53,331 nt of DNA from a virus (Duplodnaviria > Caudoviricetes): the IMG/VR virus record IMGVR_UViG_3300002446_000089, positions 1 through 53,331 of that record; one strand, written 5' to 3'. Made by a program: the position numbers and the translations under genes. Below, piece by piece: positions 17,526 through 53,217 of the stretch (the first letter of the stretch is position 1; each line of letters begins with the position of its first letter). Under the pieces are notes generated by a model, which did not search any database, had not been told where the DNA came from, and saw only the letters and a program-made list of their open reading frames with translations.

Positions 17526-17598
17526 TATAGCGATGGGATTCGAACCCACAATCTAGCTCTTAGCAGGAGCCCGCTTTATCCAGTTAAGCTACGGGCGC
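17526..17598 (-). pseudogene. tRNA-like element (Arg-like body, GCT anticodon) with broken 3' acceptor strand
   Basis: GCGCCCG-TA-GCTT AACTGGATA AAGC-G-GGCTC CTGCTAA GAGCT-AGATT-GTGGG TTCGAAT CCCAT, then CGCTATA instead of CGGGCGC. Confidence 0.75.
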
Positions 17599-17610: not shown

Positions 17611-17640
17611 ATTATAGCAGAAAATGGTATTACCGGACAA
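17611..17640 (-). promoter_or_regulatory. Sigma-A promoter upstream of the tRNA-like element
   Basis: TTGTCC-N18-TATAAT with TGn extension. Confidence 0.65.
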
Positions 17641-47139: not shown

Positions 47140-47555
47140 TTTCTCCCACCATCCGGCACCGGATATATATGCGTTCCTGTCTTTGAGTATACAATAATTG
47201 CTCTGTTTGTTTCCAGGTATTTTTTCTTTTTCAGGTCAAAATATTTTCCGATAACAGTATCCGACGAAATACGTTCTTTCGGCGGACCTTTTTTCTGAGG
47301 TAGGATTTGTCCTGTTCCGGCATATTTGTCAATCAATTCCTGAGCGTTAACTGTTAATATTCCCGGCTTCATTTCTTTTATTTCAAACTTTTTAACATAT
47401 TGTTCATATTTCTTGGTGCCTTCAATGTGTCTATTCTGCTTTTCTTTATTAACTGCAAGTTTATACTTACCCTCTTTGATGTCCGCTCTGTACTGCTCTA
47501 TTATTTTCTGATGCTCAACATCTTTAGCTAACTTTAAGGCTTTCTTGCCTTCCTG
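47136..47555 (-). pseudogene. Ntox50-like toxin domain, in frame with MuF but behind a TGA
   Basis: Open frame QEGKK...NKEKQNRHIEGTKKY...QELIDKYAGTG...IGKY...ETNRAIIVYSKTGTHIYP. Confidence 0.75.
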
Positions 47556-49379
47556 TCAATCTTTAAAATCCTTCACGTTCTTTTTGGCCTCAAGATCAGC
47601 CTGTTTTCCCTCTTCCTCGGTAGCAATAATGTGAGGTGTAATGTAACACCTACAGTTATGTGTTATAATACCATTAGCAGTATAAAACCCATCTTTTGTT
47701 TGGAGGTTGTAAACATATCCATGGAAAGGCTCAATCTTGATATCGACTATATCGTCAACGAATACCTTTCCGGGCGCTCCACTGTTAGTTTGGCTAAAGA
47801 GCTTGGTGTCGCCGATGGGACTATTACCAAGAGAATTAAAGAGGCTGGGATAAAAATGAGAAGCATAACCTCTGTTAAACGCTTTGGTGGTCGTGTCAAT
47901 ATCCCCACCGAAAAAATGATTGCACTCTATTTTGCTGGTGAATCCGAAAAGGCCCTTGCTGAACGGTATAGTGTTAACAGGGGTGTCATTCGGCGCCGTT
48001 TGCTTGAAAACAAAATCAAGCCCAGAAATAGCAGCGAATCCATGCTGATCAGAATGTCCAGAACTAGTAAGGACGAAAGAATGCGTCTGGTTGAAGCTGC
48101 CAATAGAGCGTCTAAGCTCCATGTCCATACCTTTGAAGAGAAATGCCTTCGCGCCAAGACCATTCAGGCGAAACAGCTCCATATTTCTGATACCGAGAGA
48201 GAATTGGCTTCCATGCTCATCACCAGAGGTATTGAAGCAATCCCTCAACAAGCGATTGGCCCATATAATTGCGATCTTGGAACCTTTCCCGTCGCCGTGG
48301 AAATCTTCGGGGGAAATTGGCACTGGCATGGCCGCCACCTCTTGCGAACTCCCGAACGATTTCGCTATATCCTCAATGCGGGATGGCATATTCTTGTTAT
48401 CACTATTGACCCTCGCCGTCACCCACTCACTACCGCTACTGCTGATTACGTAGCCACCTTTATTAAGCAAGCCCGCAGCGACCCATCCGCCCGGCGTGAG
48501 TATCGGGTGATTCGGGGTGCAGGAGAGTTCCTTGCCGCTGGTAGTGTTGATGACAACGAGATTTCCGTCATACCAGCGCTTACTAGCAGCAGAGATGTCA
48601 GAGGCAGATACACGAGTGTCCCCCGGTAAACACCTCGGGTGCGCGGGCGGCCCTCCAAACGGCACTTGGTCAATCGGGAATATCTTGCGGTGCAGCGCCC
48701 CGCAGACCGGACATGTTCTTTCATCCGCGGCGGCCAACCACATTACGCGTTTTATATCGTACTGCCGGTAAGCATACAAGGCCCCCTGATTACTTGCCCG
48801 GATAATCTCTGTCCTCGCAACAACCTCGGCCCTCTTCTCGACAGAAGGCCAGACGCCTTTATCCAGCTTCGTGTTCCGCAGGCGCTTGGCTATATCCGGA
48901 ATGCTTTCACCCATAATGTAGCCGCGCTTTAACTCATCCTTGATCTGCTCCCGGACATCCTGGGTGATCCGCCTAATTAACCCCAGTTGGTAATCCTGCA
49001 TGTACGACATTACCGGCATGTGGACTATCGAAAAACTGGCATTCACACCCGTTGCCGCTATGGCCGCTTCTCCCCCTGTCAAAGCAGGGAACTGAGCTAA
49101 GCCGGCCAAAGGACTTTCCGGAAGCACGTCCGTGCGGCCCCTGACCCACATCTCGGCGTTGTGCTGCATCCTGTCTATAGCCCGGTCCACTTCTACCAGC
49201 AAAGACTCCAGGCGGGTCTTCTCCCAGCCCTCGGCACTCACTAAAAGGGCTTTAATCTCAACCTCTGCGTCCCGGAAAGACTTCAACAATTCGGCAAGTT
49301 TTTTCTTCTCCCATGCCGCCAGCTTGCGGTTCAGTTTAGCATGAATCTTTTCTAGGGCTTTTAAATCAGGCGGCGTCAT
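47556..49379 (-). CDS. MuF / SPP1 gp7-like minor head protein containing an intein
   Basis: RAEVVARTEIIRA, DERTCPVC, PPAHPR|intein|CRC; located between portal and scaffold genes. Confidence 0.9.
   Translation of the reverse strand: MTPPDLKALEKIHAKLNRKLAAWEKKKLAELLKSFRDAEVEIKALLVSAEGWEKTRLESLLVEVDRAIDRMQHNAEMWVRGRTDVLPESPLAGLAQFPALTGGEAAIAATGVNASFSIVHMPVMSYMQDYQLGLIRRITQDVREQIKDELKRGYIMGESIPDIAKRLRNTKLDKGVWPSVEKRAEVVARTEIIRASNQGALYAYRQYDIKRVMWLAAADERTCPVCGALHRKIFPIDQVPFGGPPAHPRCLPGDTRVSASDISAASKRWYDGNLVVINTTSGKELSCTPNHPILTPGGWVAAGLLNKGGYVISSSGSEWVTARVNSDNKNMPSRIEDIAKSFGSSQEVAAMPVPISPEDFHGDGKGSKIAIIWANRLLRDCFNTSGDEHGSQFSLGIRNMELFRLNGLGAKAFLFKGMDMELRRSIGSFNQTHSFVLTSSGHSDQHGFAAISGLDFVFKQTAPNDTPVNTIPFSKGLFGFTSKIECNHFFGGDIDTTTKAFNRGYASHFYPSLFNSLGNSPIGDTKLFSQTNSGAPGKVFVDDIVDIKIEPFHGYVYNLQTKDGFYTANGIITHNCRCYITPHIIATEEEGKQADLEAKKNVKDFKD
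47659..47707 (+). promoter_or_regulatory. Extended -10 promoter and SD for the antisense endonuclease
   Basis: TGTGtTATAAT at 47659-47669; GGAGGT at 47702-47707. Confidence 0.65.
47721..48629 (+). CDS. Antisense intein-nested endonuclease: tandem HTH + Vsr/DUF559-like PD-(D/E)xK domain
   Basis: HTH repeats (YLSGRSTVSLAKELGV..GTITKRIKEAGI; YFAGESEKALAERYSVNRGVIRRRL); SDTERELASML...QQAIGPYNCDL...VAVEIFGGNWH...LNAGWHILVI. Confidence 0.85.
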   Translation: MERLNLDIDYIVNEYLSGRSTVSLAKELGVADGTITKRIKEAGIKMRSITSVKRFGGRVNIPTEKMIALYFAGESEKALAERYSVNRGVIRRRLLENKIKPRNSSESMLIRMSRTSKDERMRLVEAANRASKLHVHTFEEKCLRAKTIQAKQLHISDTERELASMLITRGIEAIPQQAIGPYNCDLGTFPVAVEIFGGNWHWHGRHLLRTPERFRYILNAGWHILVITIDPRRHPLTTATADYVATFIKQARSDPSARREYRVIRGAGEFLAAGSVDDNEISVIPALTSSRDVRGRYTSVPR

Positions 49380-50867: not shown

Positions 50868-52334
50868 CTACTCCATTTGAACGTCGTAGTCATCATTGTC
50901 GTAAACTTCGGACTGCGGCAAGACCATCGCCGGCGTGAAGGCCAGCACAACAGCATCGCCGCGGTCGGGGCTGCGCCCGATCCGCTTTTTCATCTCTTCC
51001 TTGGGCTCTACTCTGATCTGCCCCTTGCTGGTAAACTTGTATTTAATCCCGCACAAGTCGCCTAAAAGCTCGTCGTCTTTCGGCAGGGCAATCGGATTAG
51101 GATTAATCCGTGGGTCAGGATTTAAAAGCTCCCGCAGCAGCCACCAAAGCTCGCTTCTTCTATTGAGAAACTTATTCGGCTCGCAAGCCGCCTCAGCCAC
51201 GTTTACCCCAAAGACCGGATACTGCTGCTCTGCCAGCCGGTCTACAACTCCGCCGCCGACACCGATATCGTCAACTTTGATCGCTACAGCTTGACGTTCT
51301 CTATATTCCACGATTGCATGACCCGCCGTCTCCATGGTGCCCTGCTTGGCGAATACTTTCAGCGGCAGGACTTTCAACCCGCACCTGGTTGCAATTACTG
51401 TTTTGTCGCTGCCGAAACGGGCCACGTCCACACCCAGTTCTACCGGTACCATTCCCTCAGGCACTTCGCGCTCCATGGCTGCCTCGATCCAGGAGAGCGG
51501 GATCAGCGTGTCGTCCGCTTCGGTCGGGAACTGCCCTTTCACCCGGGCCTGGTACGCCGGTGATTCCGGCCCCCAGCGCAGGTACTTATCGGCTACCCAG
51601 TCAGGAGTAATTAGCTTCGGGTTGGGTAGGGGACCTGTTATTTTTGCTTCCCAGGTCCCGTTTATGATGTCCTCTTCAGTGATACCAAACGCCGTAAAAT
51701 TCGGGCTGTCGAAAGCCGATATGGCGATTGTGTGCCAGCCCGGGCCGCGAAAGGCGTTGTAAAACGTTCCGGAGAGTGATGTCGGATTGCCCAAAAGAAG
51801 AAGGCGTGCATGTTCCGATGTCAGCACGCCCTCTACGGCTTCGAATATATCCTCCGGTACGCCGGCCGCCTCATCAACTACTACCAGGATAAATTCCTCA
51901 TGGTAGCCCTGGAACCGGTCGGGGTCGTTTGTCGACAGCCCCATGGCGTACCACTCGTCCTGGACGATCTGAATTTCCGGACTCTTCGGCAGGATGTGCC
52001 CGCCCAGGGGAACCTTTGCCCTTTTGTAGCTCGCCCGGACTTCCTTCCAGACCAGCTTTTCCACTTGGCGCCAGGTTGGTGCGGTGGAAAGCACGATGCT
52101 GCGCGGGAAGTTATATAAAAACCACAGGATTACTTGACCTGCGGTGAATGACTTTCCTATACCGTGACAGCTTCTGACTGCAGTTCTGGGATTATCCCGG
52201 ACGCTTCTTAAAATTTCTTGCTGCTTAGGCCATGGGATTGCTCCAAGGATTTTTCTTACCCACCAGACCGGCTTTTTCTTTCCTCTTGTTCTGAGCTTCC
52301 TCTTTTCCTTCGTGCTAAGACTCTTCAGTGGCAT
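50868..52334 (-). CDS. Terminase large subunit
   Basis: SCHGIGKS Walker A, VVDEAAG Walker B, GNP, GVDVARFGSD, SPDRGDA; start approximate. Confidence 0.93.
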   Translation of the reverse strand: MPLKSLSTKEKRKLRTRGKKKPVWWVRKILGAIPWPKQQEILRSVRDNPRTAVRSCHGIGKSFTAGQVILWFLYNFPRSIVLSTAPTWRQVEKLVWKEVRASYKRAKVPLGGHILPKSPEIQIVQDEWYAMGLSTNDPDRFQGYHEEFILVVVDEAAGVPEDIFEAVEGVLTSEHARLLLLGNPTSLSGTFYNAFRGPGWHTIAISAFDSPNFTAFGITEEDIINGTWEAKITGPLPNPKLITPDWVADKYLRWGPESPAYQARVKGQFPTEADDTLIPLSWIEAAMEREVPEGMVPVELGVDVARFGSDKTVIATRCGLKVLPLKVFAKQGTMETAGHAIVEYRERQAVAIKVDDIGVGGGVVDRLAEQQYPVFGVNVAEAACEPNKFLNRRSELWWLLRELLNPDPRINPNPIALPKDDELLGDLCGIKYKFTSKGQIRVEPKEEMKKRIGRSPDRGDAVVLAFTPAMVLPQSEVYDNDDYDVQME

Positions 52335-53217
52335 CGTCATCATCCCCGGCTGCAAGGTCGGCCCAGGTATCGCCTTTACCGGGCTCATCATTCCTGCCCA
52401 TTTTCGCTTTCTCCAGTTCCAGCCTCTCTTTGGCGATGTCTATATCCTGTTTGAGTTTCTCTAACCTGAGCTTGTGTTCATTACTGATATGGCCTCTTTG
52501 CAGGAGGTCCTCATAACTGCTGATAAGTTTTTCAAGCGCTGTTGTTGCTTTCGATTGGGCTGAGAGAAAGTTCGCATGTTTATCCCAGGGGTATTGAAAC
52601 TCCCATTCGTACTCATCACCGTTTATGGATGACCGTTCACGCTTCAGATGTTTCGTTAAATCCTCTTTATCCTTTACAAACATAATCCTCTGTGCCCGGG
52701 CGATGGCCAGGTACTGGATCATGATGTTCTCCCAAAGAATATCGAGTGGGTTTTTGTTGATTATTTCATCGACGAGCGCTCTGGTATCTTCATCGTCGGG
52801 AAAGATCCTGCTGAAAAAGCCGTGCTTTAAGTGATTATGGCTGCCTTTGGGCGGCCCCGTTGCTGCTCCCCCGTGGAACTTGCACTTTGTTTTGCCTGGC
52901 AGGGCTTTGTTTTTGCACCGCTGCTTAGTCTGCCTAGAATAAGCCGTGCACTGGTTCTCTATTTGATCGGCATGCCGCCGGCAGTATTCGCTTCCGGGCA
53001 GAGCTTTTAATCTGCATCTTTTCCCTGACTTGTGAGCGATGGCCGCACAATAGCCTGCTGCTGAATGCTCAATTTTTGAGCGCTCATTTTTTAAATTGCT
53101 TATCCAGCGCCTTATCGTCCCGGCAGGGATGCCTGTTTTCTTAGCTGCATTTTCCGCGGTGGTCGCAATAGCCAGTTCGATAGCTTTGTTCTTTATTTCC
53201 CCGTCCCACCATGCCAT
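52315..53217 (-). CDS. Terminase small subunit with HTH and two Cys/His (HGG-type) motifs
   Basis: GIPAGTIRRW HTH, CKFHGGAATG, NHLKHGFFS, WDKHANFL. Confidence 0.8.
   Translation of the reverse strand: MAWWDGEIKNKAIELAIATTAENAAKKTGIPAGTIRRWISNLKNERSKIEHSAAGYCAAIAHKSGKRCRLKALPGSEYCRRHADQIENQCTAYSRQTKQRCKNKALPGKTKCKFHGGAATGPPKGSHNHLKHGFFSRIFPDDEDTRALVDEIINKNPLDILWENIMIQYLAIARAQRIMFVKDKEDLTKHLKRERSSINGDEYEWEFQYPWDKHANFLSAQSKATTALEKLISSYEDLLQRGHISNEHKLRLEKLKQDIDIAKERLELEKAKMGRNDEPGKGDTWADLAAGDDDDATEES

Follow-up and report, generated by a model that had tools for sequence, protein, structure and literature searches.

The viral DNA analysed here, IMG/VR record IMGVR_UViG_3300002446_000089 (Caudoviricetes), is a linear record of 53,331 bases, about 67% complete, which is referred to at its full length as the window. 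Its minus strand contains a gene of 607 codons (47556..49379) for a MuF-like minor head (head morphogenesis) protein, recognized from its open reading frame (ORF) and from database profiles, with Pfam Phage_Mu_F matching residues 145–250 of the 607-residue precursor (2.6e-16) and phrog_15127, a head protein family, matching with 1.2e-42. Between ..AHPR and CRC.. this protein is split by an intein of 326 codons, residues 250–575 of the precursor (47655..48632, minus strand), whose limits were drawn from coordinates, translation and Pfam, and whose first codon lies at 48630–48632 and last codon (Asn) at 47655–47657. Pfam Intein_splicing covers residues 256–575 (2.4e-09; 37.6 bits for a cut-off of 35.8), and the hallmarks comprise the CLPGDTRV start, TPNHP as the TxxH of block B, VYNLQT as block F, GIITHN as block G and a Cys at position +1. 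With Cys1, TxxH, the His-Asn of block G and a +1 nucleophile, the insert has the features of a HINT splicing domain and is predicted to be an intein. The opposite strand of this intein encodes a protein resembling homing endonucleases (HENs), and the subject of this work is the expression of that gene, the signals for which appear to be written into the codons of the splicing motifs themselves.

The HEN-like gene (47721..48629, plus strand) encodes 302 aa, runs antisense to the intein in codon alignment with it, and was characterized through its homologs, AlphaFold2 and Foldseek. We consider the antisense ORF to be a real gene because it has 230 database homologs at E ≤1e-3 (the best at 1.7e-95) and a fold predicted with high confidence. 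N-terminal helix-turn-helix (HTH) repeats are followed by a C-terminal Vsr-like nuclease domain, and the relatives are 26–59% identical to the nuclease of the window. The AlphaFold2 model, built on an alignment of 55 relatives, reached a mean pLDDT of 91.7, and its top Foldseek matches in the PDB were 3r3p, the catalytic domain of I-Bth0305I, and 1vsr, the Vsr protein of Escherichia coli (probability 1.00, TM ∼0.61 on the target, E 2.6e-3 to 8e-3), while Pfam gave sub-threshold HTH and REase matches only. Among relatives D185 and E194 are invariant and H201 is nearly so; the comparison with the EDxHD nucleases, known for their composite catalytic motif E-D-x-H-D, combines a fold-level TM of 0.61 to 3r3p with a sequence-profile E of only 0.2.

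A homolog of the nuclease lies wholly inside the opposite-strand MuF-intein frame in all 69 related viral loci. The reading frame was mapped for 68 of these loci and for the window (L070 could not be mapped and was left out), and in 68 of these 69 cases nuclease and intein share their codon triplets. In the window its stop codon TAA (48627..48629, plus strand) is the complement of intein codon 2 (Leu), one codon before the N-terminal boundary; the stop faces intein residue 2 in 19 of 58 non-redundant loci and falls within a few codons of it in most others. The nuclease gene is thus almost exactly co-extensive with the intein, and the arrangement, an opposite-strand ORF of Vsr-like fold over a continuous rather than split intein, places the window among the inteins with an antisense VSR-like HEN. 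All the neighbouring genes are on the minus strand and the nuclease is the sole plus-strand gene among them, so that it cannot be co-transcribed with them and therefore needs a promoter of its own. Two relatives carry apparently damaged nuclease genes, one with a frame shift near the start (L016) and the other with a stop after 197 intein codons (L044).

The sequence-only reading had located a promoter and a ribosome-binding site in the intein's splicing blocks, and both its coordinates and its letters proved correct. The candidate extended −10 element TGTGTTATAAT (47659..47669, plus strand), with TG at 47661–47662 and the hexamer TATAAT at 47664–47669, is the exact complement of the block G codons for I-I-T-H (ATT ATA ACA CAT). 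The Shine-Dalgarno (SD) sequence GGAGGT (47702..47707, plus strand) is likewise the exact complement of the block F codons for N-L-Q (AAC CTC CAA), and after 13 nt it is followed by the ATG (47721..47723, plus strand), formed opposite the His codon of FHGY. As had been claimed, the intein boundary (47655–48632) encloses both motifs. Placing initiation 7–8 nt past the hexamer, the usual distance from a −10 element, the predicted transcription start would be A47676 or G47677 (47676..47677, plus strand), and the resulting 45-nt leader is predicted to fold weakly (z = +1.57). From the end of the hexamer to the ATG there are 51 nt in the window, the mode in relatives being 45 nt. Since the frame is open upstream of ATG 47721 as far as GTG 47631, the start codon in the window was assigned from the homologs; an in-frame stop between the intein junction and the start position excludes a longer ORF in 37 of 69 relatives.

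Taken alone, the window offers evidence for these signals that is suggestive only. The pattern TRTGNTATAAT occurs once in the 53 kb on both strands, where 0.14 occurrences are expected and at least one appeared in 12 of 100 shuffles, and TGNTATAAT occurs twice with 1.67 expected. The signals could simply be a by-product, devoid of function, of the conserved IITHN and NLQ peptides combined with AT-leaning codon use: on the complementary strand His always gives xTG and Gln always supplies a final G, so that part of both motifs comes free. The peptide recoded 2000 times with synonymous codons yielded an equally good TG-extended −10 in 2.4% of cases (P 0.024), which makes the element mildly improbable and thereby speaks for a by-product, and GGAGG from N-L-Q is expected in ∼13% of recodings by arithmetic from background codon frequencies. 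Discrimination must come from related inteins.

We therefore examined synonymous codon choice in 59 non-redundant viral loci aligned at the C-terminal splice junction, 10 of the 69 having been removed as near-duplicates, against a background of 18,067 extein codons. In block G, Thr is ACA in 16 of 23 cases (background 0.17), one Ile is ATA in 23 of 30 (0.20) and the other is ATT in 33 of 41 (0.30); Leu at codon 10, where present, is TTA in 13 of 19 (0.08), and the Leu of block F is CTC in 44 of 53 (0.21), with binomial P values for these five codons from 5e-8 to 5e-22. Adjacent residues show no such preference, Asn being AAC in 37 of 59 (0.62), His CAC in 21 of 35 (0.58) and Tyr TAC in 28 of 50 (0.55). 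Synonymous choice thus leaves the extein background only at the positions that spell the −10 element or the SD sequence. Collection scans with fully degenerate peptide patterns, which introduce no codon bias into the search, gave the same picture. The peptide GIITHNCRC was found in 62 stretches, comprising 48 distinct sequences in which Ile is ATA in 47, Ile is ATT in 39 and Thr is ACA in 34, while the neighbouring codons vary, with splits of 20/28 for His, 21/27 for Asn and 13/35 for Cys, and all six Arg codons in use. For GHVYNLQT, found at 80 loci of 118 stretches (70 distinct sequences), Leu among the matches listed is CTC in 63 of 69 and CTT in the remaining 6, and His is CAT in 57 of 70 (background 0.42), which on the complementary strand gives ATG rather than GTG.

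Such uniformity might also reflect identity by descent following a recent spread of the intein instead of selection, in line with the horizontal movement of inteins and with the 10 near-duplicates among the 69 viral loci, which had been removed. Against it, pairwise nucleotide identity in the first 36 nt averages 0.54, the nucleases retain only 26–59% identity to that of the window, and the neighbouring Asn, His, Tyr, Cys, Arg, Gly, Val and Gln codons vary, the first three at background frequencies; this free variation at neighbouring synonymous sites argues that such sites are saturated. Descent alone is, to our judgement, an extremely unlikely explanation of the codon pattern.

Inteins that share the block G peptide and lack the nuclease provide the control. 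A scan for NGIITHN in any context returned 80 loci of 112 stretches, 15 with the nuclease and 65 without it; 56 of the 65 nuclease-free loci are intein-like, the next residue being C, S or T, and represent 25 families in other host genes. Among the matches listed, TATAAT is present in 2 of the 25 nuclease-free families and in 13 of the 14 with the gene (Fisher 1.7e-7), and TGnTATAAT in 0 of 25 and 10 of 14, respectively (Fisher 1.6e-6); counted as distinct sequences with the gene, TATAAT is found in 52 of 61 and TGnTATAAT in 42 of 61. The comparison is conservative because the controls come mostly from AT-rich contigs. In block F, the Leu of V-Y-N-L varies in the HEN-less inteins, CTC accounting for 7 of the 22 loci, which represent only 4 families, to be set against the 63 of 69 listed GHVYNLQT matches. 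These differences are at odds with a by-product of peptide conservation, a reading that we regard as largely refuted and very improbable. The check suggested in the sequence-only reading, namely whether the codons for I-I-T-H and N-L-Q are constrained only in inteins that carry the antisense gene, thus came out in its favour, and its proposal that the nuclease possesses a promoter-like element and an SD sequence of its own in blocks G and F is supported by the comparison with relatives. In that reading the transcript would also escape late-gene timing, suit homing during DNA replication and run antisense to the MuF/portal mRNA.

A HEN-less intein with the family's own block F or G peptide was not found in the GHVYNLQT and GIITHNCRC scans, among the matches listed: the nuclease is present in 76 of 80 listed GHVYNLQT loci and in 47 of 48 GIITHNCRC sequences, the remainder lacking downstream DNA. 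For this reason the control was drawn from other intein families that share NGIITHN. Five control inteins (L294, L312, L305, L303 and L322) have long antisense frames of 161–389 codons without a Vsr-like gene, which could be other antisense nucleases or chance. Eleven others (L268, L270, L279, L283, L297, L300, L319, L325, L330, L334 and L335) have only 9–46 sense codons before NGIITHN, the short stretch ending at a stop or at the end of the locus, which probably cuts those of L268 and L283; such short inteins are as expected of the C-terminal halves of split inteins in fractured genes.

The promoter-like elements of the relatives follow two designs. In group 1, which includes the window, the TG-extended −10 occupies nt 6–14 from the junction, with no −35 inside the intein, and the extein codons just beyond the junction are unconstrained. 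In group 2, block G ends in ..[LV]SSN or ..VKN, with L-Y-I further in, and the complement reads TTGACA at about nt 5–10, a 17-nt spacer and TATAAT at nt 28–33, all within the intein; five loci of this group (L015, L039, L047, L061 and L062) match the promoter consensus at 12 of 12 positions. A parallel substitution affects block F: with D-A-S-S in the position of N-L-Q, AGGAGG replaces GGAGG (L086, L090 and L092). The records concerned are of Bacteroidales, Firmicutes M10-2 and Ruminococcaceae, their peptide G-H-V-Y-D-A/I-S-S spelling AGGAGG or GGAGA. The same ribosome site is therefore written with different amino acids.

These designs also bear on a constraint that might act on the sense mRNA, in which a cluster of ATA, ACA and TTA codons would slow the ribosome at the end of the intein and thereby aid folding or splicing. 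The three are indeed minority codons (background 0.20, 0.17 and 0.08), yet the equally constrained CTC and ATT are not rare, control inteins show no such bias, and ribosome slowing fails to explain either the TTGACA-17-TATAAT geometry or the attainment of GGAGG and AGGAGG through different amino acids; we find it barely credible.

The distance between SD sequence and start codon in the window finds its explanation in the same comparison. At 36 of 58 loci the start lies opposite the His of G-H-V-Y-N-L-Q, 8 nt past GGAGG, whereas 8 of the 58, including the window, have F-H-G-Y/F-V-Y-N-L-Q, with the His two codons further upstream in the intein, so that the start moves 6 nt further downstream on the plus strand and the long spacing of 13 nt results. 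That spacing is a feature of the lineage, most relatives having 8–9 nt: among the 167 relatives that have a motif, 115 show 8 nt, 29 show 9 nt and 11, of the same type as the window, show 14 nt, counted from the motif core. The SD motif in the 200 relatives examined is GGAGG in 91, GGAG in 36, GAGG in 24 and AAGG in 15. In the cultured Salmonella phage Jerseyvirus jersey, the homologous place reads TGTGCTATAAT, followed by GAGG, 8 nt and ATG.

The translation signals are relevant to a further possibility, that the promoter is real and its main product is a regulatory antisense RNA tuning MuF, perhaps also the portal gene, with translation of the nuclease being secondary. The transcript would necessarily be complementary to the MuF mRNA, and our scan of the window sequence revealed no terminator-like site directly after the nuclease stop, both of which suit such a role. 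The selected SD sequence, the preference for ATG over GTG seen in the CAT bias (57 of 70 listed matches, background 0.42) and the conserved, well-folding ORF nevertheless indicate that translation itself is selected, and we deem a chiefly regulatory RNA improbable.

Across the relatives, a strong promoter-like element was detected in 128 of 200 distinct upstream regions and in 14 of 842 same-strand control windows from the same loci, the 200-region set being enriched for group-1 peptides by the design of the scan. Of the 128 elements, 80 are extended −10 sequences, 21 are −35/−10 pairs, 9 qualify as both types and 18 are perfect hexamers only; most stand at a fixed distance from the start codon, with a mode of 45 nt. 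The hexamer of several Actinomycetota records reads TACGAT, CACGAT or the like.

Several observations weigh against the interpretation of these motifs as a functional promoter and ribosome site, in addition to the modest improbability of the −10 in the window itself. By the criteria used, 72 of the 200 distinct relatives lack a strong sigma-70-like element, the share with an element drops from 88% below 45% GC to 42% at 65% GC or more, and among loci found by protein homology alone it is present in 49 of 84. The relatives are not independent samples, which makes the binomial P values optimistic. Within the window, a simple −35/−10 scan does not list the site at 47659, no −35 of at least 4/6 preceding it, and the best −35 candidate, ATGTAA at 47641–47646, matches at 3/6 and lies in the extein. 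The 13 nt between SD sequence and ATG exceed the ∼7–11 nt of the other window genes examined and fall outside the customary range (∼5–10 nt), while the GGAGG-type complementarity to 16S rRNA is present. Finally, the firing of the promoter, its start site and its timing in vivo are what we infer from the DNA, and the closest terminase relative, described below, is labelled Methanosarcinales, a host in which a sigma-70 reading would not apply.

As to the host, terminase and capsid relatives gave no clear indication. The closest relative of the terminase (window 50868–52391), with 56.5% identity and a similar gene order, belongs to BK063673.1, a 60-kb circular virus from a methanogenic enrichment deposited with the host Methanosarcinales. 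The MuF-like gene of that virus comprises 198 aa by its annotated coordinates, too short for the intein of the window. If this label extended to the window, TTATAATA would be an archaeal TATA box and not a bacterial −10. Genes for an S24 CI/LexA-type repressor and a large serine recombinase are present in the window, from which we conclude that its virus is probably a temperate one of bacteria; sigma-70-like sites occur in the lysogeny-switch region, and all of the 26 genome records that contain the nuclease are bacterial. An archaeal host is, on this evidence, scarcely plausible. As regards Bacillota, to which the sequence-only reading had assigned the −10, the TR of the TRTG motif says nothing about the host because it is fixed by the invariant CA of the His codon, and the strong SD sequences found in the other genes of the window are compatible with this phylum without being specific to it; the host may belong there.

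The distribution of the nuclease is broad. Its 26 genome records bear about 20 lineage labels, including Armatimonadota, Sumerlaeota, Gemmatimonadota, Chloroflexota, Firmicutes, Proteobacteria, Synergistota, Actinomycetota, Bacteroidales, Cyanobacteria, Omnitrophota and Saccharibacteria, and it lies under the MuF genes of cultured Salmonella, Pseudomonas, Klebsiella, Escherichia, Vibrio and Gordonia phages, six of the records being of Escherichia phages.

Other features of the window deserve a brief description. A site of the form TTGACA-17-TAAAGT (10/12) at 47531–47559 on the minus strand overlaps the MuF stop and faces the small genes downstream, being possibly an internal promoter of the head operon. 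The only other TGnTATAAT of the window, TGCTATAAT (17611–17619, minus strand), has TTGTCC 18 nt upstream and immediately precedes a tRNA-like sequence (17531–17593, minus strand). This sequence, situated between the genes for the repressor and the recombinase, matches the Rfam tRNA model with 44.3 bits over model positions 6–65 of 71, and its 3′ acceptor strand is unpaired. ARAGORN detected no tRNA in the window, and the sequence may be a degenerate tRNA or the remnant of an attachment site.

Taken together, the data indicate that the motifs are held by selection at synonymous sites in the relatives, as the codon comparisons show, and the carriage of promoter and ribosome site within the intein appears well supported on the same sequence grounds. 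We consider it quite probable that the 3′ end of the intein, spanning blocks F and G, serves also as a plus-strand expression cassette for the antisense homing endonuclease. In this scheme the sigma-70-type TG-extended −10 (TGTGTTATAAT), for which no −35 would be needed, would drive transcription of the nuclease gene; the transcript would begin with a leader of ∼45 nt containing the GGAGG SD sequence (47702–47707) and continue into the ATG (47721), and the RNA polymerase of the host would read the cassette independently of the late-gene programme of the phage. Promoter, ribosome site, start and stop all lie between the splice junctions, and hence the whole cassette would be copied whenever the intein homes into an empty MuF allele. 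More tentatively, and with slightly more doubt than confidence, we propose that a complete cassette indifferent to the identity of the host has been overprinted on the splicing motifs, such that the choice of I-I-T, S-S/L-Y-I, N-L-Q and D-A-S-S is co-determined by regulatory DNA of the opposite strand.

The layout itself is already known. Antisense VSR-like HENs have been described in full inteins of actinobacteriophage genes, including the minor capsid (MuF-like) gene (Gosselin, Arsenault and Gogarten, bioRxiv 10.1101/2025.01.02.630785), and the window shares with them, as far as the available part of that text shows, the MuF-type host gene, a class-1-like intein and the opposite-strand Vsr-like nuclease inside it. 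The nucleases under the MuF genes of the Gordonia phages Vivi2, Fosterous, Affeca and Angelicage are matched by that of the window with 37.7% identity (E 1e-45). In the available part of the preprint the terms promoter, RBS, ribosom- and expression do not occur, whereas in the window a promoter and an SD sequence are predicted in blocks G and F, the ORF spans from block F to intein codon 2, and the distribution extends far beyond the actinophages treated there. Antisense LAGLIDADG HENs in inteins (Gorbalenya 1998; Gogarten 2002, both as cited in the accessible part of bioRxiv 10.1101/2025.01.02.630785) share the opposite-strand position and differ in nuclease family from the Vsr-like enzyme of the window.

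Among Vsr-like enzymes, the EDxHD nuclease I-Bth0305I is encoded in a group I intron (Taylor 2011, PMC3239194), and the accessible part of its description gives it an HTH-type N-terminal DNA-binding region joined to a Vsr-like nuclease domain, as in the window. Vsr-like HEN ORFs were also reportedly found by Dassa in 2009 between the halves of split inteins. Those relatives, as far as the available descriptions go, are placed in introns or between split-intein halves, while the gene of the window is antisense over a continuous intein.

The ShiLan insertion in a phage methylase hides an out-of-frame HNH nuclease (Arsenault 2025, PMC11855218), whose expression is left open in the accessible part of that paper, no RBS having been detected there and leaderless translation being proposed. 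In both cases a phage gene contains an in-frame insertion that is overprinted with a mobility nuclease; from the part of the paper available, the ShiLan HNH is on the same strand, without splicing domain or RBS, whereas the window has a predicted promoter of its own and a strong SD sequence. In the group I introns of phage T4, HEN ORFs have independent promoters inside the intron, and the nucleases are likewise expressed from signals internal to the element, apart from the host gene. The T4 signals lie in non-coding intron RNA, and those of the window are overprinted on protein-coding sequence, namely that of the catalytic splicing motifs. A literature search that covered few subscription journals found no account of expression signals in inteins with an antisense nuclease, and as far as we could find, selected promoter and ribosome-site overprints on blocks G and F have not appeared in print.

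If confirmed, these observations would describe splicing chemistry, promoter and ribosome site in a three-way overlap, with about 70 bp able to carry three superposed codes. They offer a concrete, testable solution to the question of how 'hidden' intein-associated nucleases come to be expressed, and since relatives occur in cultured E. coli, Salmonella, Klebsiella, Pseudomonas and Gordonia phages, laboratory tests are feasible. The finding is relevant as well to gene callers that discard antisense ORFs and to the recoding or engineering of these inteins, since the nuclease would be silenced if blocks F and G were changed synonymously. Were a nuclease fused in frame to the intein of a late head gene, its production would be tied to that of the head proteins, a limit that an antisense gene with its own promoter lifts. 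The enzyme could then be made early in infection, and also in lysogens, while the late head gene is silent, which may explain why inteins of late structural genes have separately expressed nucleases. A consensus promoter suited to nearly any housekeeping sigma factor would, moreover, help to explain the spread of this intein family among the phages and prophages of highly diverse bacterial lineages.

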